A program made the translations under genes and the position numbers. Under the pieces are notes generated by a model. It ran no database searches. It was not told the DNA's origin and saw only the letters and a list, made by a program, of their open reading frames with translations. Positions 11,679 through 63,074 of a DNA stretch of 64,000 nucleotides are shown piece by piece. The DNA lies in assembly GCA_965204725.1 (NCBI GenBank), contig OZ242005.1, forward strand, positions 1,888,001-1,952,000, read 5' to 3'. Source of the stretch: Candidatus Latescibacterota bacterium (GTDB taxonomy: Bacteria; Latescibacterota; UBA2968; UBA8231). Position 1 is the first letter of the stretch. Every line of letters starts with the position of its first letter.

Positions 11679-12947
11679 TCACTCGTCGGCCGCTTGCCGA
11701 CTTACGACCTGCTGCTCCTCTTGGACGCGCTGGTACAAGCGCTGCCATTCTTTCGAGCCATCGTCCTCCAGCACTTCGGTACGCACCCCCTCCACATAGG
11801 TTCCCGGAACATTGGGGGATTCCGTGTAGATGCAGGTGCCGTCTGGGTAGGAAACGGCGTTGATCAGCCGCGGTTTCGGGTGCGTGTAGGGCTGCCCCTG
11901 ATGCGCGTATTCTTCGAGCTTTGCCTGCGGAACTCGGTATTGCTCAACGGCCGCCTCATCCACCTCAACGCCGAGGCCGGGGCCATCGGGGACCCGCTGG
12001 TGCCCGTTGATCACCCGAACCGGCTCGGTGAGCAGATGGTGGCTGTACATATTGATACAGCTAATCGCCGGCCACCGAGCGTGCGTTAGCACCGAGCCGA
12101 GATGGGCGTCCCACGTGGTCGTCAACCCATTGCCGACGATCTGCAACCAAAACGGCATGGAAACTTCCGCCGCGCATTGCCCTTGGTGCATGGTCTGCGA
12201 CTTTCCGCCCCCAATCACCCAGCCATCGCACACTTCCTCGCGCACCGCCGTGACCAATGGCGGCGAACCAAAGTGCATGGCCACCGGCCTGTTCACCGCT
12301 TGGCGGATCTGGCGATTGCCGAGAATGTCCTCCTGCGGGATGGGCGTTTCAAACATGGCCACGTTTTCGTAGCGCTCGAGCCGCTTCATCAGGGGAATGG
12401 CGTTGGCCGAGTTCTCCCAAGAGCCGTTGGGATCGAGATCGAGATGGAAATGGGGCGGCACCACCGCGCAGATCGCCTCAACCTGCGCGAGGATGTCGTT
12501 CCAAGGTCTCGGCTTGTTCTTGAGACTCGTGTACCCGTGCGCCACGGCCTCGGCCGCTTCGGCCGCCCAGTTTTCCGGTGAGGAGTGGCTACACCACCAA
12601 GAGATCGGCGTCCAGTCGCGCACTTTGACGCCCAGCAACCGATGCACCGGGACTTCGAGTATCTTGCCGACCACGTCGAACAGAGCCATCTGCAAACCAG
12701 CACCCAAGCCATCTTCGTGCATGAGTTCGGCCGGGCTTTGGCCAATGGTGCGCGCCACCGCGTCATCGGTCACCCGGCCGTAGGTGTAGTGAACGACGGT
12801 TTCTCCCCAGCCTATGTGGCCGGTGTCGGTGGCTACCTTACACAGCTCGAGGATGGACCAGTTGTACACTGACTGGCGAGTAATCTGCTGCTGTCGAGGC
12901 GTGAACGGGACATCGACGATAATGCGTTCGACATGCGTGACTTTCAT
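11679..12947 (-). CDS. Mandelate racemase/muconate lactonizing enzyme family protein
   Basis: GWGE, ALFDVVGK, KxK (KNK), DPN, ETP, PDGPGLGVEVD. Confidence 0.9.
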   Translation of the reverse strand: MKVTHVERIIVDVPFTPRQQQITRQSVYNWSILELCKVATDTGHIGWGETVVHYTYGRVTDDAVARTIGQSPAELMHEDGLGAGLQMALFDVVGKILEVPVHRLLGVKVRDWTPISWWCSHSSPENWAAEAAEAVAHGYTSLKNKPRPWNDILAQVEAICAVVPPHFHLDLDPNGSWENSANAIPLMKRLERYENVAMFETPIPQEDILGNRQIRQAVNRPVAMHFGSPPLVTAVREEVCDGWVIGGGKSQTMHQGQCAAEVSMPFWLQIVGNGLTTTWDAHLGSVLTHARWPAISCINMYSHHLLTEPVRVINGHQRVPDGPGLGVEVDEAAVEQYRVPQAKLEEYAHQGQPYTHPKPRLINAVSYPDGTCIYTESPNVPGTYVEGVRTEVLEDDGSKEWQRLYQRVQEEQQVVSRQAADE

Positions 12948-13089
12948 GGGGTCTCCTTTCAGCCGAGGCGAGGGGGGCAGGGGTTGAAAGGCCAGTGAGT
13001 ATCTATCATCTTTAGCGGACGCAGAAGCGGCCCCGGCTGTTCACGAGTAAGATAACAGAACTAGCGTACCCTGCCACCACAACCGCGAG

Positions 13090-14658
13090 ATGGCCTCAAT
13101 GACGGACCGCAGCAACGACGGCAAGGCCCCCAGACGCCGCCCGCCCCGAATTCGCCTAAACGCGGGCGCTTGGAGTCCGCTCGTTGACATGATGGACATT
13201 TTTCCGGGACACCGCGGCGCCAGTCGGCACGGCGAACTCGCGCTGTATGACGCCCCGATTGGCATCCGCTTTGAGATTGAGGAGGCCGTTAAGTCCGACC
13301 CGATTTTACAGGCGGCCATGGAGTGGGAAGGCCGCCACATCTCGCCGCTCTACGTCTGGCAGCGGGCCGGGCGCTATCACTTGCTCTACGACAGCGAGGG
13401 CGGCCAGTGTTACGCGGTCAGCGACGATGCGTATCGCTGGACGCGACCCGTCCTCGGCTCGTCTAACAACAACCTAATCCCCAACTCGTGCAAAGGGGCC
13501 ACCGGAATTTTCCAAGACCCTACGGCCCCGCCCCAAGCGCGCTTCAAGGCGATGGGCGGCCGCATGTACTGGTGGGATCCGGCCAGCGGCCAAGAGCTGA
13601 CCGGCGATGAGCCGGCCCGGCGCATCCAAGCCGAACAAGAGCAAGCAAACTACACCGGCCCCCGCGCCGAAATCACCGGCCAGATGTTGGCTTGGACGTC
13701 CCCCGATGGCCTCGATTGGACTCCGGTCGCAGAGCCGCTGGCGCACCGGCCGGTCAACGGCGGCATATCGGCCCGTTACGACGAACACCGCGGCAACTAC
13801 TTCGCTTACATCCAGTTGATGGGCTACCCGGCCGAACTGCTCGCAGGCATCGGGGTCAACCGGCTCGAACAGGGCATCCAAGTCCGCGCGATCGGCTTTG
13901 CTCGCACCGACGACTTTGCCCACTGGCCCGCCCCCAAGCTGGTCCACTATCCCGACACCGAGGACCCGCCCGACATCAGCTTTTACGGCGCCAACTACTT
14001 CCCCTACCCGGGCCGCGACGACCTGCACGGCATGCTCATCCCGGTGTACCACCAAATCGCCAGCACCATCGACGGGCAAATCGCCTTCAGCCGCGATGGC
14101 CTCTACTGGTCCCGCCCCGAGCGCCGGCCCATCCTGCCTCTCGGCACCGAGGGAGAAGGCGACGAGTGCATGGCCCACTTCTGGCGCAGTGGCCTCGTCG
14201 AGCTGCCCGATGGCTACTGGGCTTGTCCATACGCGGCCTTCTCGGTCATTCACGATTGCCCGGCCGACGAAGTAGATGCGCTCTTTCCGGCGCGGCAGCC
14301 GCAGCAAATTCGCTGGGCGCGCTGGCGTCCGCACCGGTTCTGCGGAGTGCGCGCCCGCACCGAGGGCCGCTTCTCCCTGCCCTCCCTCTTCCGCGTCCAC
14401 GACGAGCTGCGCCTCAACTACCGCTGCGACCCGGGCGGCTGGATTCAGATTGAGCTGCTGGAGAAACTGCCATCATTGATGCGCCCCGATGCCGACCCGA
14501 TGCCCGGGTTCTCCTTTGACGAGTGCGACCGCCTAACCGGGGATTGCGAAGACCGGGTGGTTACTTGGCAGGGCCGCTCCAACATCGCCGCGGCCGGCGA
14601 GGCAGTCGGGATCCGAGTGCGCCTACTCGGCGCCAAGCTATTTGCCTATCGCGTCTAA
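13090..14658 (+). CDS. Hypothetical protein, GH32/GH43-like beta-propeller plus C-terminal beta domain (start may be near 13190)
   Basis: Repeated SxDGxxW motifs (SPDGLDW, SRDGLYW); C-terminal LRLNY...GWIQIELL...GFSFDEC...VTW...KLFA pattern. Confidence 0.65.
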   Translation: MASMTDRSNDGKAPRRRPPRIRLNAGAWSPLVDMMDIFPGHRGASRHGELALYDAPIGIRFEIEEAVKSDPILQAAMEWEGRHISPLYVWQRAGRYHLLYDSEGGQCYAVSDDAYRWTRPVLGSSNNNLIPNSCKGATGIFQDPTAPPQARFKAMGGRMYWWDPASGQELTGDEPARRIQAEQEQANYTGPRAEITGQMLAWTSPDGLDWTPVAEPLAHRPVNGGISARYDEHRGNYFAYIQLMGYPAELLAGIGVNRLEQGIQVRAIGFARTDDFAHWPAPKLVHYPDTEDPPDISFYGANYFPYPGRDDLHGMLIPVYHQIASTIDGQIAFSRDGLYWSRPERRPILPLGTEGEGDECMAHFWRSGLVELPDGYWACPYAAFSVIHDCPADEVDALFPARQPQQIRWARWRPHRFCGVRARTEGRFSLPSLFRVHDELRLNYRCDPGGWIQIELLEKLPSLMRPDADPMPGFSFDECDRLTGDCEDRVVTWQGRSNIAAAGEAVGIRVRLLGAKLFAYRV

Positions 14659-56900: not shown

Positions 56901-57710
56901 CTAGCCTGCCGCCTCGCCGGGCTGGTACTCAATGCGCCGCATGAAACGCTCGCCGACATCGTAGTTTGGCTGGTCGGAGACAAAGCGCCACAAGCGCACG
57001 CGCTGCATCAGTTCGTAGCGATGCTCGTTGCCCTCCCAGCCGTGGTTGGTCGATAGGATGGGGCCGATTGCAGGATCGTCCAGATCCGCGGTGTCAAAGT
57101 TGCAGACCTGCGGCCGCGTCGGGTTGAGCCGCAACTTGTACATGAAGCGGTCCCGAGCCGTGTAGTTGCTGCGCGCCCCGTGCCAGACGCGGGTGTTCCA
57201 CACGTACATGGTCCCCGCCGGGCAGGTCGCCCAGACCTTGCCCCGCATGTGGTGGTAAATGGCGATCTCCCCGGTGCGCACATTGCGGAATTGCGTTCCC
57301 GGCACTAAGAAAGTACCGCCCATCTCGTCTGTTGTATCTGCGGGGAACAGCGATAGCTGGATATCGAAGTAATGGTCGCGGAAGTCGATGACCGAGTCTT
57401 GGTGCATATTGGGGCCTTTGGTTTGCTCGGCCTTGGTCAAGTGCGCGGCGTGGTGGTCGTACAGGGGATCGGGGCCAACCAAGGAGTGGATGAGTCCCTG
57501 GACCTGCGGCAGGCGGAACGCATCGCCCAAAGCCGTGCCTTTGGGCCAAGTCTCCTCAAACGGGGTCCCCACGGCGAGATAGCCCTTATTGTGGTGCATT
57601 TCCTCAAGGCAGGCTCGGCACAGATCTTTAGGGACCATTTCTTCAAACTTCAAATACCCCGAGGCGACAAATTGCGCCATCTGCTTCGAGTTCAAAAGAT
57701 GCTCTTTCAC
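56901..57710 (-). CDS. Phytanoyl-CoA dioxygenase family protein
   Basis: FVASGY, HQD, GGT.LVPGT, WH...N...R. Confidence 0.82.
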   Translation of the reverse strand: MKEHLLNSKQMAQFVASGYLKFEEMVPKDLCRACLEEMHHNKGYLAVGTPFEETWPKGTALGDAFRLPQVQGLIHSLVGPDPLYDHHAAHLTKAEQTKGPNMHQDSVIDFRDHYFDIQLSLFPADTTDEMGGTFLVPGTQFRNVRTGEIAIYHHMRGKVWATCPAGTMYVWNTRVWHGARSNYTARDRFMYKLRLNPTRPQVCNFDTADLDDPAIGPILSTNHGWEGNEHRYELMQRVRLWRFVSDQPNYDVGERFMRRIEYQPGEAAG

Positions 57711-58006
57711 GATGTGGCTCCTTCCTCTTTTTGCAGCTCGTTGAATTTCGACAACACGATCTGGTAGGGCAGCGGCCCCAGTTCATAGCCCTCTTGGGGC
57801 GAGCGATGCTTGAGTTCCGACATCTGGATGACTTGCCAGCCATCGCGCAGGGCCGCCATGGCGTTGTGGTAGGGCGGCTCGCTCTCCTCGACCAAGTCGC
57901 CTAGGCCCGTCCCCTTGGAGGCTTCGTAGCGCGCCCAAGCGACGACTTGGGCGTCGAGCGCGGGCGTGGTCTGAAAAAGTACTAGAATGTCTTGCACTGC
58001 GGTCAT
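57707..58006 (-). CDS. Small hypothetical protein
   Basis: ATG after GAAGG; ALRDGWQVIQ motif; GTGA overlap with the downstream gene. Confidence 0.65.
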   Translation of the reverse strand: MTAVQDILVLFQTTPALDAQVVAWARYEASKGTGLGDLVEESEPPYHNAMAALRDGWQVIQMSELKHRSPQEGYELGPLPYQIVLSKFNELQKEEGATS

Positions 58007-58101
58007 AAAAAAGCCTTCCGGTGATATGGGGTTGAAGGTTGAAATTGCCGAGCGGTGTCCATTAAAAGTTAAAAATAGAGAACCTGTCGCCGCGCCGGCC
58101 G

Positions 58102-59070
58102 CTAATGCGTCCGCGCCAAGGGCGTCCATTCGGAGAGCGCGTCCAACTCCGTTCGTTCCCCATCCCCCAACTCCACTTCCAACGCGCCAAAGACCTCCTC
58201 CACGTGCTCGGGGCGGTCTGGGCCGATGATCGGTGCGGTAACATCCTCGTTGGCCAATATCCAAGCGATCGCGACCTGCGCCGGGGTTTTGTCCTGTGCT
58301 CGACCGATCTCGGTTAGCTTCTGCACGATTCGCTCGGCTTGGTCGCTCAGGGCCGCTGCAAACCGCCCATCGTCCTGCCAAGCACTATCGGTCGGCGGCT
58401 TTTGCCCGCGCCTAAAGCGGCCGCTCAACAGGCCGACGGCCAGCGGACTATAGGTCATCATACCGAGGCCGTACTGCCGACACAAAGGCAATAGCTCCGG
58501 CTCCACTTCCCAGCGCTGCAATAGGTTGTACTGATTTTGTAAGGTGAACAATGGGTCTAGCCCCCGGCGATCCGCCGTCCACAATGCCTCCACCACTTGG
58601 GCGGCGGTAAAATTGCAGGCGCCCACATAGCGCACCTTGCCCTGCCGCACCAAGTCGTCAAACGCCCGCAGCGTCTCGTCGAGTGCGGTGTCGGCATCCC
58701 AGTGGTGCAGCAAGTATATATCGACGTAATCCGTGCCCAAGCGCTTGAGCGACCGCTCGATCTCGCGCATGATGGCAAAGCGCGACAGGCCGCGGTCGTT
58801 GGGGCCATCGCCTACGGGGCTCCAGACTTTGGTCGTGATCACCAGATCGTCGCGCTTGCCCTTGATGGCCTTGCCCAACAGCGCTTCGCAACGGCCCTGA
58901 AAGTAGTAGTTGGCGCAATCGAGGAAATTGCACCCCAAGTCGAGGGCGGTCTCAACCGTGCGCACAGCGGTCGCCTCGTCTGTGTGCCCGTGCCAGTACC
59001 CGCGGAAGGCCGTGCCCAAGCACAGCCGCGAGACCTTGACCCCAGCCCGTCCCAATCGCACGTACTCCAT
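58102..59070 (-). CDS. Aldo/keto reductase
   Basis: LGRAGVKVSRLCLGT, D.A..Y, SLKRLGTDYVD, GKVRYVG, YSPL. Confidence 0.93.
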   Translation of the reverse strand: MEYVRLGRAGVKVSRLCLGTAFRGYWHGHTDEATAVRTVETALDLGCNFLDCANYYFQGRCEALLGKAIKGKRDDLVITTKVWSPVGDGPNDRGLSRFAIMREIERSLKRLGTDYVDIYLLHHWDADTALDETLRAFDDLVRQGKVRYVGACNFTAAQVVEALWTADRRGLDPLFTLQNQYNLLQRWEVEPELLPLCRQYGLGMMTYSPLAVGLLSGRFRRGQKPPTDSAWQDDGRFAAALSDQAERIVQKLTEIGRAQDKTPAQVAIAWILANEDVTAPIIGPDRPEHVEEVFGALEVELGDGERTELDALSEWTPLARTH

Positions 59071-59338
59071 GATTTCTCCTAGTCCAGTTTGATTGGCAAG
59101 TTATATGTCGGCGCATTCACGGGCCGCGCCAAGCCGATTTCGAGGCGGATTTCAGTCCCCGGCAGCAAGCCTATATTCTCTCGTTTCTCGCAAGGTTCCG
59201 CCCCCTTGACGTAATTCCTACAGCTATACTATGTATATGTATAAGCTGAGCACTGGAAATACTCAAGAAAACCTTTATCGATAAGATACGGGAGATGATG
59301 GAAATGCTCTCAGGACTACCCAGAGGCTGAGGACGCCC

Positions 59339-59911
59339 ATGCAAGGATTGGCACTCATTGATTTGGATAATTTTCGTGAGCGCGACAAGAAGTCTAAGGT
59401 TGATTTGGAGTTTGATACCGAGACGCTTGTCGATGACGTCGCTCGCGCCTTTGCAACTGTATTTCCGACTGCTCGTGAGCTCGACGTCCGTCTGTATGGT
59501 GGCTGGAGGGATGAGACCGGCTCGCCGAGCCACGAGGCATCGTGGCTATACGAGTTGCTGCCCGGTCTGCGCGGCCGCCGACATGGGCTGATCGTCCGCC
59601 CTGCGCTCGCAACGACCATGATCCAATTCCCAGAGTTTCTTCTGCGCGGCACCGTGCGAGGCCGAGGACGGAGGCAGCGACAGAAAATGATTGACGGCAT
59701 GATTGGCTGTGATGCCCTCTATATAGCTACACGCGGCCCGACGTACATTGGTATCGTCACCAACGATGATGACCTTCTACCAGCCACTCTCTCAGCACAC
59801 CGTGAGAACGCCGACGTGTTGGTATGGATGCGTCCCCGAGCCATCGGCTCAGCCGTCAATGACACGGGCTTACTGAACGAAGGGATGCGAATTCACCAGT
59901 TTAGGAGTTGA
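59339..59911 (+). CDS. NYN/PIN-like domain protein (putative nuclease)
   Basis: IDLDN, RLYGGW, QKMID...D, TNDDDLLP acidic motif set; GAGG RBS. Confidence 0.75.
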   Translation: MQGLALIDLDNFRERDKKSKVDLEFDTETLVDDVARAFATVFPTARELDVRLYGGWRDETGSPSHEASWLYELLPGLRGRRHGLIVRPALATTMIQFPEFLLRGTVRGRGRRQRQKMIDGMIGCDALYIATRGPTYIGIVTNDDDLLPATLSAHRENADVLVWMRPRAIGSAVNDTGLLNEGMRIHQFRS

Positions 59912-59915
59912 TCTC

Positions 59916-62207
59916 ATGTTTGAAAGCTATCACAAACGTATCGAACTAGATCTAGCCTCTTTCGCCGATCCCGGTAGTGTCGAGGTAATTCCATCCGGGA
60001 GGACATTATACGCCGAATGGAAGATGCGAGGGGAGCCACGGGCGGCGACGTTTACATTTTCTTCAGACAGTGGTGTTAGTGTCAAGACCGACGACATAAC
60101 CCGGCCCCAGCCTTACTCTATCTTTCTCGCTGGTACGCAAATGGCTGACCTTAGACGCATGGCGCAGATGATAAGCCAAGCTAAGCGTCAGGAGATATTC
60201 ATTCCTACGAGAGCACACCGTACTGATCTCGACACCACCGATCCGTCTTCAGCCACAGAGCTATTGGCTAAACTTCTTGAACGCGACGACGCGGAGACGA
60301 CCCAAGTAGTCATGATTACTGGCGATGCCGGTACAGGAAAGACCCGTGTCCTACAGGAATTGGTTTTACAACAAGCCAGCAAGTATCTTCAAGGAAAAAC
60401 CAAGAAGTTATTCCTATACGTCGATGCACAGGGTCGTGCGCTAGCGCGGCTAGATGAAGCTCTGGCGACAGAGCTTCAGGACCTAAAGGTCAATATTACC
60501 TATCACTCCATTGCAACCCTCGTCCGCGTTGGATTGCTGGTACCGATCATCGATGGCTTCGACGAGCTTCTCGGTGTAAGTGGATACGATGATGCGTTCA
60601 GTTCTCTGGCAACATTTCTAGAGCAGCTAGAGGGTCAGGGCGGGCTGATTGCATCGGCCCGATCTGTGTACTACGAGGAAGAGTTCCGCAGTCGTGCTAG
60701 TCGTGCTTCTATAACAGGAGAACAAGCATGGTCCCACATCCCGGTCGAGATCGTCCCATGGGAATCCAGCTATCAGAAGGACTTTCTGAACGAACTAGCC
60801 AAACATAAGTCTATGTCGGAGGAGAATAAAGCGGCATTAAGCAAACGCGTCGACGAAGTATTCAAGGACAATGAAGCCCTCGCCATGAAACCGCTGTTCT
60901 TCGCCAAAGTTGTCGACCTGCTACTCGAGGAGCCGGATTTTTCCGGCGGCGGGGATCTCCTCAATGAACTGACGCACAGCTATCTAAAACGCGAACAAAA
61001 GGAAAAACTGCTCGACCGACAACAGCAGCCATTACTATCCGAATGCCGCCTTGAACAGCTCATGGGTGAGTTGGCCGAGGAAATGTGGAACCAAGAAACC
61101 CGCGAACTAGACTTCCGCTCCGTTCGGGAAGTCGCGGAATACGTTCTTTACGACGAGAAAGTACCGGAATCCACACGGCAAGTCGTTGTCGAACGGATGC
61201 CGACGCTCGCGTTCCTTGCAACTAATAAGAAGCATACGGGTATTACGTTCGAGCACGAGGTCTTCTTCTTTTATTTTTTAGCCCGAGCAATAGTAAATAA
61301 GTATATTCAAAACAAGGCCCTGCAGGTCGTCTTGAGCCGTTCCACGCTTCCAGAATTTGTCGCTGAACGTTTAGCTTTTGAACTACAGCAAGAGAGCCAC
61401 CTCTCAACACTCAATGACCTACAAAAAATTCTCGATCGGTTGGGTGACGCCGGACGAACTGAGTGGCACCGAACGGGCCAAGTGCGGGAAAACGCTGGCA
61501 TCGTTACGTTGGCGTTATTGCGCAAGTTCACGGATATCAATGGACCGAACTCTGAGATTGAGGGATGCACAATCAGCTCGGTTGTTTTTCCAGGGAGCAA
61601 TCTAGACGGCGTTACGTTACGAAATTGTACATTGGTCAATGTAGAGTTTCGCCGGACTAATTTGAGAACCACCAAATTCATCAAATGCACTGCAAATAAT
61701 GTTCGGCTAGTGGAACCAAGGGTACATGTCAATTCTACTCGTTTGGAGTTGAACGGACTTCGCGTACCCGAGGATGTATCCAGCATTCAAAAACTGAGCG
61801 ACGACGGATCTCCCACGATCTATGATCCGAGTGAGATTATCCATGTTCTCCACGGATGCGGCACCCCCGTGGAGAACAGCAGCGACGAGGAGTTGCACGA
61901 GGTCCCAGAGGAATTTCTGGAGCTGTTGAAAAAACTAATACGGGCGTACGAGAGAGCCAATCCCATCTGTATTAGTAATGACGAGAACCCGTATATCCAA
62001 AGGCTGTTGAAAGATCCTCAGTGGCCTACGTTGCGGGATATTCTTATCGAACACGGCATTGTGAAACGGGAGCATCGCGGGACTAGCGGCCGACGCAAGG
62101 AATTTCTACGCCGTCAGTTTTCATCTGATCAGATCATGTCGGGGATAAGCAAATCGGGCCGCGCCGATCCGCAAATTGCAAGGTTTTGGAACTCTCTTGA
62201 AGTATAG
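59916..62207 (+). CDS. NACHT/STAND-like NTPase with pentapeptide-like repeats
   Basis: Walker A GDAGTGKT, Walker B IIDGFDE, KPLF, FEHEVF..YF, NLDGVTLRNCTLVNVEFRRTNL; AGGAG RBS. Confidence 0.82.
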   Translation: MFESYHKRIELDLASFADPGSVEVIPSGRTLYAEWKMRGEPRAATFTFSSDSGVSVKTDDITRPQPYSIFLAGTQMADLRRMAQMISQAKRQEIFIPTRAHRTDLDTTDPSSATELLAKLLERDDAETTQVVMITGDAGTGKTRVLQELVLQQASKYLQGKTKKLFLYVDAQGRALARLDEALATELQDLKVNITYHSIATLVRVGLLVPIIDGFDELLGVSGYDDAFSSLATFLEQLEGQGGLIASARSVYYEEEFRSRASRASITGEQAWSHIPVEIVPWESSYQKDFLNELAKHKSMSEENKAALSKRVDEVFKDNEALAMKPLFFAKVVDLLLEEPDFSGGGDLLNELTHSYLKREQKEKLLDRQQQPLLSECRLEQLMGELAEEMWNQETRELDFRSVREVAEYVLYDEKVPESTRQVVVERMPTLAFLATNKKHTGITFEHEVFFFYFLARAIVNKYIQNKALQVVLSRSTLPEFVAERLAFELQQESHLSTLNDLQKILDRLGDAGRTEWHRTGQVRENAGIVTLALLRKFTDINGPNSEIEGCTISSVVFPGSNLDGVTLRNCTLVNVEFRRTNLRTTKFIKCTANNVRLVEPRVHVNSTRLELNGLRVPEDVSSIQKLSDDGSPTIYDPSEIIHVLHGCGTPVENSSDEELHEVPEEFLELLKKLIRAYERANPICISNDENPYIQRLLKDPQWPTLRDILIEHGIVKREHRGTSGRRKEFLRRQFSSDQIMSGISKSGRADPQIARFWNSLEV

Positions 62208-62217
62208 AGCGGCCTCC

Positions 62218-62973
62218 TCACCCCTTTCCCCCCTTCACACTCCACACCGCCCCGGTGGTGTACGTATTCCGCTCCGAGCACAAAAACTCAATCACCTCGG
62301 CCAATTCCTCCGCGTCCGCGTAGCGTCCGATCGGGGTGCCTGGGTTGCGCAGGTGCGCCTCGTCAAAGCGCGGTACCACCATGTCGGTCAACGCCCGCCC
62401 CGGCTCGACGCCATTGACGAACACCCCCTGCCGCGGCCAAGCATCGCCTAGCGCCTGAATAAACGACCAAACCGCCCCCTTGGACACCGAGTACGGCACC
62501 TGATTGGGGCTGCCGTGGCGCGCCCCAGAGGAAATCGTCACGCAGCGCCCCCACTCTCGTGCGAGCATGTGCGGGACCGCCGCCTGATGCGCGTAGTACA
62601 CCCCGTGAACATTGATCTGCATGACCTTGGCAAACTGCGCGGCTGGTTGCTCGAAAAAGGGCTTTTCCCACCCCAAGACCCCGGCGCTGCACACCAGAAT
62701 ATCCAGCCGCCCAAAAGCCGCCACCGCTTGGGCCACCGCCGCGTGTACCTGCCCCTCGTCGCTCACGTCCGCCTCGACGAAGAGCGCCTGCTGCCCCATG
62801 GCCTCAATCTCGCGCACCCGCGCCCGCGCCGGTTCGGCCTGCACATCGATAATAGCAACGTGCCGGCCGGCCTCGGCCAAGCGCAACGCGGTCGCCCCCC
62901 CGATGCCGCGGGCACCCCCGGTAATCAGGGCTACCCGTTGTTCCACAGGTGCTGCAAATCGCAAATGTGCCAT
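62218..62973 (-). CDS. SDR family oxidoreductase
   Basis: TGGARGIG, YSVSK (YxxxK), VN...PG. Confidence 0.92.
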   Translation of the reverse strand: MAHLRFAAPVEQRVALITGGARGIGGATALRLAEAGRHVAIIDVQAEPARARVREIEAMGQQALFVEADVSDEGQVHAAVAQAVAAFGRLDILVCSAGVLGWEKPFFEQPAAQFAKVMQINVHGVYYAHQAAVPHMLAREWGRCVTISSGARHGSPNQVPYSVSKGAVWSFIQALGDAWPRQGVFVNGVEPGRALTDMVVPRFDEAHLRNPGTPIGRYADAEELAEVIEFLCSERNTYTTGAVWSVKGGKG

Positions 62974-63074
62974 ACCATCCTTCCTTGCTTGCACGGCTTG
63001 CGCGGCCGCGCAGTTTTGAATAAAGATAAGTTATCTATCGCCCCTTTACGATTATAATATACGGAGCATAAAAA

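Follow-up and report, generated by a model that had tools for sequence, protein, structure and literature searches.

A 64,000-nt stretch of the genome of a Candidatus Latescibacterota bacterium (contig OZ242005.1, positions 1,888,001 to 1,952,000 of the forward strand; hereafter the window) carries a two-gene cassette which, on balance, is probably a mobile two-component NLR-like conflict system with a nuclease effector, most likely anti-phage. Gene 1 encodes a divergent NYN-like predicted nuclease and gene 2 a NACHT NTPase. Its NACHT sensor is unremarkable, and the novelty lies in the obligate, separate and unannotated NYN-like partner, together with a predicted docking site. Bacterial NLR-like proteins are studied as ancestors or analogues of animal and plant innate immune receptors, and almost all of the described examples have their effector in the same polypeptide.

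The two genes are co-directional and separated by a gap of 4 nt, with GAGGA placed 7 nt before the gene 1 ATG. G+C content across the pair was 0.475–0.585 in 400-nt windows, against 0.60–0.66 in the flanking genes. An earlier sequence-only reading of this DNA had described an AT-richer two-gene operon between aldo/keto reductase and short-chain dehydrogenase (SDR) genes, and the open reading frames (ORFs), the G+C profile and the Pfam matches of the flanking genes (PF00248 and PF00106) bore this out. Both ORFs are more than chance occurrences, because they have hundreds of conserved homologues (132 for gene 1 and 640 for gene 2 by word-indexed search, with 911 gene-1 clusters at 50% identity).

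Homology to the closest sister species ends at about position 59090, some 18 nt past the reductase start codon, and restarts at 62214. Both genes were missing from every one of the genus's 30 other species, all of which conserve the flanking DNA. Among 168 genomes of the phylum, this genome alone gave a strong gene-1 match and the pair was absent from 163; the weak gene-1 matches within the phylum belonged to NYN-like plus NACHT pairs of a distant type. Contigs from three other public sequencing runs span both cassette junctions at 95–100% likeness, and the insertion is therefore genuine and shared within the species. No empty-site joint was seen in contigs of four public runs. By sequence comparison, the cassette was acquired horizontally.

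No Pfam, NCBIfam or PADLOC model matched gene 1 or its 37 close homologues, a profile search of solved structures with gene 1 returned nothing, and a scan of this whole genome with the NYN model PF01936 matched only another gene. SUKH-3 matches in 5 of the 37 homologues (best E 0.007) were taken as noise. The structural model of gene 1 (pLDDT 86, pTM 0.85) was matched best by the MARF1 NYN domain in VIA-align (5yaa; Z 10.9, rmsd 3.5, 142 aa), followed by LabA-like 2qip (Z 9.7), NMNAT, which is Rossmann-like (Z 9.0), and FEN/PIN-type nucleases (Z 7–8.4). Foldseek placed NYN structures top by probability (0.99), with a weak E-value of 3.6e-3. The NYN acidic motifs that the sequence-only reading had picked out were present in NYN order and spacing (D8/N11, D119-x5-D125 and D143-x-D145), such that the canonical invariants D-x2-N, K...D-x5-D and D-x-D-F correspond to D8/N11, K116/D119/D125 and D143/D145. 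In an alignment of 138 rows (137 gene-1 representatives at 50% identity plus the window sequence), D8 was kept in 135 rows, N11 in 128, D119, D125 and D143 in 137 each, and D145 in 136; the acidic positions are invariant in 12 canonical NYN domains, drawn from related genomes and aligned as a control.

A connection to the Pfam family comes through distant relatives. The upstream partners of distant gene-2 relatives match the gene-1 hidden Markov model (HMM; E 6e-20 for L125) and match PF01936 too, at 27.8 bits in L125 (cut-off 24.2), 23.5 bits in L030 and more weakly in L088, L032 and L117. On the strength of fold, motifs and this transitive Pfam link, we therefore call gene 1 a divergent NYN-like predicted nuclease, one that has the fold and, by the transitive link, belongs to the superfamily, but stands outside the Pfam family as defined. 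It is predicted to be metal-dependent and is most likely an RNase. With the NYN family (PF01936: MARF1, LabA/DUF88, Rae1/YacP), gene 1 shares its predicted fold and the order and spacing of D-x2-N, D-x5-D and D-x-D, the last followed by a hydrophobic residue and P. It differs in having no OST-HTH/LOTUS or other RNA-binding domain, and in three family-specific additions that form the predicted contact with the NACHT protein, namely a YGGW loop (residues 53–56), an Arg-rich hairpin (77–91) and a poorly modelled segment (92–117).

Gene 2 matched Pfam NACHT (PF05729) over residues 131–224 at 35.7 bits against a cut-off of 26.7. Its pentapeptide-repeat match was just over the cut-off (PF00805, 22.3 versus 20.2) and PF13599 was under it (32.4, cut-off 38); the gene-2 family profile also matched pentapeptide-repeat proteins among solved structures at E ~2e-6 (residues 535–611), and the model has the short regular strands of a beta-helix at 552–626. 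Walker A GxxGxGKT, Walker B DGFDE, R249 and H447 of the motif FEHE were invariant in all 51 aligned gene-2 homologues, which were 39–90% identical to the query. H447 falls in the winged-helix domain (WHD) part of the model and is a candidate equivalent of NLRC4 H443, the position being a hyperactivating one in bNACHT25 and NLRC4; a conserved histidine in the winged-helix domain is given as a defining NACHT residue in the text of Kibby et al. (10.1101/2022.07.19.500537). An AlphaFold2 model of gene 2 (pLDDT 87, pTM 0.85) had NLRC4 as its best Foldseek match (2.5e-12), together with NOD2 and NLRP3, and aligned with NLRP3 in VIA-align at Z 21.2 (rmsd 4.8, 402 residues, model residues 73–570). Because the Pfam score is over its cut-off, the Walker A and B motifs are intact and the modelled fold matches NLRP3, NOD2 and NLRC4, gene 2 is a genuine NACHT (STAND) NTPase, with a predicted NLR-like fold of nucleotide-binding domain (NBD), helical domain 1 (HD1), WHD and HD2.

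The ends of gene 2 are less familiar. The sequence-only reading had noted a P-loop, pentapeptide-like repeats, an unrecognised N-terminus and C-terminal domain, and no effector domain, and all of this agreed with our Pfam, PDB profile and protein atlas searches, which assigned residues 1–122 to no effector or adaptor family and gave no match for residues 631–763. The PDB profile searches of the two terminal domains gave nothing below E 0.3, and the ESM Atlas gave no usable match to residues 1–118 or 600–763 (best score 0.81, in the chance range). The whole-protein VIA-align search of gene 2 covers only residues 78–548, with the termini outside. In the model, the C-terminal domain has a helix-helix-helix-strand-strand order that is winged-helix-like. 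A homotypic adaptor common to gene 1 and the gene-2 termini was considered and rejected (hhalign probabilities 0.3–0.6%).

The two genes are conserved together, a point that the sequence-only reading had proposed to check. A gene-1 alignment scan of one genome per species identified 32 loci, all in metagenome-assembled genomes (MAGs), from Binatia, Spirochaetia, several orders of Acidobacteriota, Gamma- and Alphaproteobacteria, Gemmatimonadota and Planctomycetota, and the surroundings of the pair differ across at least six phyla. Gene 2 lay directly downstream in 27 of these loci by tblastn, and in 30 when three distant pairs are included, in which a 23–25% identical NACHT-pentapeptide relative stands behind a 24–35% identical gene-1 relative; the other two loci are fragments or remnants. 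Decayed copies occurred among the gene-1 loci (L013, L018 and L027). A metagenome scan with gene 2 gave 75 loci, with gene 1 directly upstream in 32. At 38% identity or more, gene 1 was upstream in 16 of 20, the four exceptions being one 5'-truncated form of gene 2 that starts at residue 162, and none of the NACHT-only partial matches had a gene-1 partner. Stop and start overlapped by 8, 4 or 1 nt in 18 of the 32 complete pairs and the genes were +1 to +29 nt apart in 11, with three pairs giving no reliable spacing call. Identity to the query declines in parallel for the two proteins (Spearman 0.93, a descriptive value only, as the loci are related). No third gene was found to recur across loci. 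Within the closer clades, as sampled here, pairing was obligate.

Several variants of the pair were seen. An Acidobacteriota MAG holds two complete NYN-like plus NACHT pairs in tandem (L020:7001-12902), 47% and 41% identical to gene 2, and in L005 the opposite strand carries another NACHT-pentapeptide paralogue (12473-14554). A truncated gene 2 starting at about residue 159–162 recurs in L018:7001-9079, L083, L084, L085 and L118; in L018 it directly follows a gene-1 fragment (residues 17–106), as a deletion derivative or a fusion. Among longer proteins, sought as fused forms of gene 1, just two were found (352 and 375 aa), neither with a NACHT domain, which is weak evidence. The gene-1 model matched nothing in BFVD at E 1e-3 or better. 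The family is confined to uncultured bacteria, outside defence islands, and the public sequencing runs listed as holding it include sponge metagenomes and no RNA run.

We predicted the complex of gene 1 and gene 2 using both family alignments, and the outcome supported binding, with a score of 0.73 where the best control reached 0.00. Of 157 solved complexes 116 attained that mark, as did 2 of 215 mismatched pairs; these counts are only a rough guide when own alignments are used. Three runs had at least 88% of their contacts in common, with a partner pLDDT of at least 84. We know of no comparable solved complex, so the pass is unlikely to stem from a structure that the predictor had already seen. 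The predicted contacts on gene 2 are residues 174–200 and 221–237 in the NBD, residues 389–406 (EEMWNQETRELD) in the WHD area of the model, and residues 440, 471 and 515–518, while the N-terminus stays outside the interface save for residues 19–20. On gene 1 they comprise the Arg-rich hairpin and its neighbours (47–51 and 60–101) plus residues 2, 4, 125 and 129–135. The nuclease is thus predicted to dock on a composite surface formed by the NBD and winged-helix domain of the NACHT module. The contact segments of gene 2 are family-specific and invariant, and 27 of its 42 interface residues were at least 90% conserved, compared with 193 of 721 elsewhere. Paired clades keep R178, Y196, H197, D225 and Q393–T395; in partner-less relatives R178 is replaced by N, Y196-H197 by R-D or H-D and D225 by G or S, and N/W392-Q-E-T is variable.

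In the closed, ADP-bound state of NLR/STAND proteins the WHD is packed on the NBD, and activation rotates the two apart and allows oligomerisation. A partner that bridges NBD and WHD would therefore bind in a manner that depends on conformation. We propose that gene 2 would be the switch, with the pentapeptide beta-helix and C-terminal domain as its sensing end, and gene 1 an effector in trans, co-translated and complexed with gene 2, its Arg-rich hairpin seated on the composite NBD/winged-helix surface. The closed ADP-bound NACHT protein would restrain the nuclease. An invader trigger, detected by way of either the pentapeptide helix or the C-terminal domain, would bring about nucleotide exchange, opening and oligomerisation; the composite surface would be broken or rebuilt, and the nuclease would be freed, or clustered or re-arrayed on the oligomer. 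RNA would then be cleaved, such that cell growth stops or invader replication is blocked. Alternatively, control might work by recruitment, with activation by proximity. We infer all four of the defence role, the trigger, the substrate and the direction in which control runs (release or recruitment).

Pentapeptide-repeat proteins are described as DNA mimics in a passage of Kaur et al. 2020 (PMC7159879), and a DNA-binding invader protein is for this reason a conceivable trigger, which we offer as speculation by analogy. As for the direction of control, the predicted complex raises the idea that the NLR clamps its effector in trans across an NBD–WHD cleft present only in the closed ADP-bound state, with release as the switch; we put this forward tentatively, and doubt it more than we believe it. 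If true, clamp-and-release would be a hybrid between NLR signalling and the logic of toxin-antitoxin systems, one that is not known to have been described for any NLR.

Several observations weigh against a dedicated defence system of this design. A scan of 101 ORFs neighbouring the pair, which covered 29 of the 32 genome loci, showed mostly metabolic genes, and the mobile or defence-type minority consisted of integrases (L016, L018), transposases (L008, L028) and DNA methylases (L002, L022); because these are so few, the classical defence-island signal is weak. The pair gave no match on plasmids (tblastn with both proteins), and the gene-1 alignment scan gave none in viral contigs. Full-length gene-2 relatives at 29–37% identity were divided between 16 with a gene-1-like partner and 18 without. 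The partner-less relatives had no gene-1-like ORF within 3 kb or upstream, including by second-round HMM, and they retain the N-terminal domain, both terminal domains being kept. As about half of these relatives are partner-less and yet keep the N-terminus, the NACHT protein can evidently exist without this nuclease.

The assignment of gene 1 and its interface has points against it as well. PF01936 did not match gene 1 or the 37 close homologues even at E 10, and hhalign of the gene-1 profile against the 12 canonical NYN domains was not significant (probability 0.7%, E 0.078), although the sole aligned stretch, D125...VTNDDDLLPA with D...VSGDGDFVPL, is a D..hhh[ST]xDxD[FL]xP motif in the correct register. 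The interface conservation in gene 2 is confounded, because a large share of the contacts falls in the NBD, where conservation is higher than in any other domain, and the gene-1 interface residues were not enriched for conservation (15 of 39 versus 45 of 151). The residue contrast between paired and solo relatives may reflect a single evolutionary event. The sequence-only reading had the sensor activate a separately encoded RNase. A separate NYN-like partner, its conservation with gene 2, the lack of a family-level PADLOC or NCBIfam match and the predicted binding all favour that proposal; the position of the interface, on the NACHT module and not the N-terminus, fits it less well, and for that reason the model suggests that activation may really be a sensor holding its effector and then freeing or re-positioning it.

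It has to be asked whether the cassette is instead an addiction module resembling toxin-antitoxin systems, with the NYN/PIN protein as toxin, the NACHT protein as its stoichiometric neutraliser, selfish spread and no dedicated anti-phage role. PIN-fold nucleases are the commonest type II toxins, and VapBC is a type II toxin-antitoxin system with a PIN toxin and a small DNA-binding antitoxin. The cassette shares with VapBC a PIN-fold nuclease encoded beside, and here predicted to be bound by, a protein partner, as well as overlapping genes and the mobility of the pair. In the cassette the genes overlap or nearly abut, the pair has been transferred across phyla into scattered insertion sites, even within a hydantoinase gene pair, and the predicted contacts include the catalytic-motif residue D125 and strand-1 residues. 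Yet the cassette's partner is a 763-aa NTPase switch and its nuclease gene comes first; a neutraliser would need far less than a protein whose Walker motifs are invariant and which also has a putative WHD histidine and a repeat sensor, there is no small DNA-binding antitoxin, and the pair was not found on plasmids, where addiction modules abound. We consider such a module rather unlikely. It also overlaps with the conflict system that we favour, many toxin-antitoxin systems being abortive-infection defences.

Regulatory or housekeeping RNA processing is less probable again. The NACHT protein would then be a STAND regulator of the MalT/AfsR type, whose C-terminal domain binds nucleic acid, and the NYN protein would process particular RNAs. 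Metabolic neighbourhoods predominate, the C-terminal domain has a winged-helix-like order of elements, and some bacterial STAND proteins are transcription factors, as stated in part of a 2026 preprint on AfsR. Nonetheless, no metabolic neighbour is conserved between loci, and the absence of the pair from all 30 other species of the genus and 163 of 168 phylum genomes, its foreign G+C, its variable chromosomal slot and the tandem duplication in L020 form a pattern typical of conflict genes rather than housekeeping ones. We also give little credence to gene 1 as a sensor or co-factor, which might, for instance, hold the ends of invader RNA in its PIN-like pocket and so regulate the NACHT switch, with toxicity residing in a gene-2 terminus or a host factor. 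Docking on the NBD/WHD switch and not at the N-terminus, where effectors normally sit, would suit this arrangement, as would the partner-less relatives that keep both terminal domains and the lack of an assigned function for the gene-2 termini. The retention of the metal-binding acidic positions in 135–137 of 138 rows argues for catalysis instead, and neither gene-2 terminus resembles a known enzyme by sequence.

The favoured mobile conflict system corresponds to no named system in PADLOC-DB v2.0.0 or NCBIfam at family level, as the sequence-only reading had anticipated. Gene 1 was matched in 0 of 37 members, and gene 2 gave PADLOC matches of P-loop length only (mad8 in 8 of 51 and Avs2 in 6 of 51, best E 3e-5). 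Term searches of the literature gave no description of a NYN-plus-NACHT gene pair, though preprint supplements (e.g. Kibby Table S1/S2) may list such pairs.

The nearest relatives in design are the bNACHT proteins of Kibby et al. (10.1101/2022.07.19.500537). As their text presents them, these share with the cassette the NACHT module, Walker A and B motifs and, if H447 is its equivalent, the conserved WHD histidine, C-terminal repeats that form a superstructure (pentapeptide repeats occur among bNACHT sensors), a patchy horizontal distribution and nuclease effectors, which are common in bNACHT. They are described as single-gene effector-NACHT-sensor proteins, rarely in operons, whereas here the nuclease is a separate and tightly coupled gene; their RNase effectors are Schlafen and HEPN, whereas the fold here is NYN/PIN; and the NACHT protein of the cassette differs in having a small N-terminal domain of unassigned family. 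The same source describes NACHT proteins with pentapeptide sensors and N-terminal nuclease effectors that defend against phage, and proposes that adaptor-type N-termini of bNACHT recruit other effectors.

Avs/AVAST proteins, the defence STAND NTPases treated in Nature 2026 (PMC13581612), are similar in running from a sensor through NTP-dependent oligomerisation to effector activation, and some have extra genes, as the cassette does. According to that text they belong to another STAND branch, with mostly TPR sensors and with effectors either fused or drawn from other families. None of the terms NYN, PIN or pentapeptide was found in the main text or in the supplement files of the paper that were searched. 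A PIN-NACHT fusion described in Kaur et al. 2020 (PMC7159879) likewise brings an RNase of the PIN fold and a NACHT NTPase together in a conflict system, but as one polypeptide within vWA-MoxR ternary systems, as that passage has it, whereas the cassette has separate genes and neither vWA nor MoxR. Two candidates in the text of Payne et al. 2024 (10.1101/2024.01.29.577857) are also relevant. HEC-09 shares a MARF1-like NYN domain, conserved aspartates and a defence context, but is there a single gene with an N-terminal part resembling a helix-turn-helix, and failed to protect against the phages on which it was tried. In HEC-03 an ATPase likewise has a PIN protein as its partner, but the ATPase is of ABC type and not NACHT. 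From those descriptions, neither is embedded as the cassette is.

A widespread separate-effector family such as this, with the nuclease alone in 911 clusters, would be a simple system in which to study how NACHT opening is coupled to an effector. The catalogued defence effectors would also gain a clade of NYN-like nucleases that has no annotation as yet, and the family is a test case for systems outside defence islands, in uncultured bacteria.

Table. Positions of the cassette, its domains and motifs, its flanking genes and the sister-species inserts in the same slot (window coordinates unless a locus is named).
Feature	Position	Strand	Basis
Gene 1, predicted divergent NYN/PIN-fold protein, 190 aa	59339..59911	+	ORF list, fold model, motifs
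Gene 2, NACHT NTPase, 763 aa	59916..62207	+	ORF list, Pfam, fold model
Gene 2 residues 1-122, N-terminal alpha/beta domain, unassigned family (one helix, four strands, two helices)	59916..60281	+	
Gene 2 residues 123-545, NACHT module	60282..61550	+	
Walker A, G136-T143	nt 60321-60344	+	
Walker B, D213-E217	nt 60552-60566	+	
Gene 2 residues 546-630, short pentapeptide-repeat beta-helix	61551..61805	+	
Gene 2 residues 631-763 and stop codon, linker and C-terminal domain, unassigned family	61806..62207	+	
Left end of insert and A+T-richer operon upstream region	59089..59338	+	sister-species homology limit
Flanking aldo/keto reductase, native genome, outside cassette	58102..59070	-	PF00248 E 1e-75
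Flanking SDR, native genome, outside cassette	62218..62994	-	PF00106 E 6e-51
Sister-species inserts, same slot as 59089-62213	L062:228-7690, L063:2459-8866, L064:235-6494		

Across loci, the picture is of a small cassette that has apparently been transferred often and is not a classical resident of defence islands. At L001:4502-11735 the pair lies exactly between hydantoinase/oxoprolinase A and B genes, splitting a metabolic gene pair. Five distant, partner-less gene-2 relatives (L108:536-1945, L120:1359-2930, L113:1312-2436, L114:648-2438 and L102:2106-2750) have ahead of them ThiF plus JAB, a phage-type integrase, Schlafen AlbA_2 plus HATPase_c_4, or PRiA4_ORF3, contexts typical of mobile or defence regions.

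The slot between the reductase and SDR genes is variable across the sister species. In most of them it holds a gene of 642 aa whose G+C is native and which Pfam does not match, sometimes accompanied by Sel1-repeat or coiled-coil ORFs. This slot gene, 642–668 aa long and matched by neither Pfam nor PADLOC (L051:94-2022 and equivalents in L052–L070), was present in all 20 sister species whose slot was examined. This genome lacks it, and so does the closest species, G038, where a coiled-coil ORF of 295 aa takes its place. Three sister species (G002, G004 and G032) carry a 6–7 kb low-GC insert (0.36–0.53) in the same slot. The insert has genes for a dynamin-like GTPase (LeoBC-like in PADLOC, E 1e-9 to 3e-19), a HerA-like ATPase of about 1050 aa (mad8/HerA, E 1e-18), a nuclease of WHH/Colicin-DNase type, a protein for SUKH immunity and one with Sel1 repeats, and looks like a separate conflict system, possibly an unnamed one.

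A promoter and terminator scan found no sigma-70 consensus site on the + strand, and sites were no commoner than in shuffled sequence. No convincing terminal repeats were found at the cassette ends, where there is just one 17-nt imperfect direct repeat (59120-59136 and 62155-62171, 15 of 17 identical), maybe a chance match; one copy lies within the insert some 30 nt from its left border, the other some 40 nt ahead of the gene 2 stop. One contig of depth 2 in run X7 joins 59785 to 61067, skipping 1281 nt inside the cassette; it represents a rare variant with a deletion or else is chimeric. On the − strand, a 224-aa ORF with no Pfam match (57707-58381) shares about 280 nt with the 3' end of the reductase gene, and its true start is probably further downstream.

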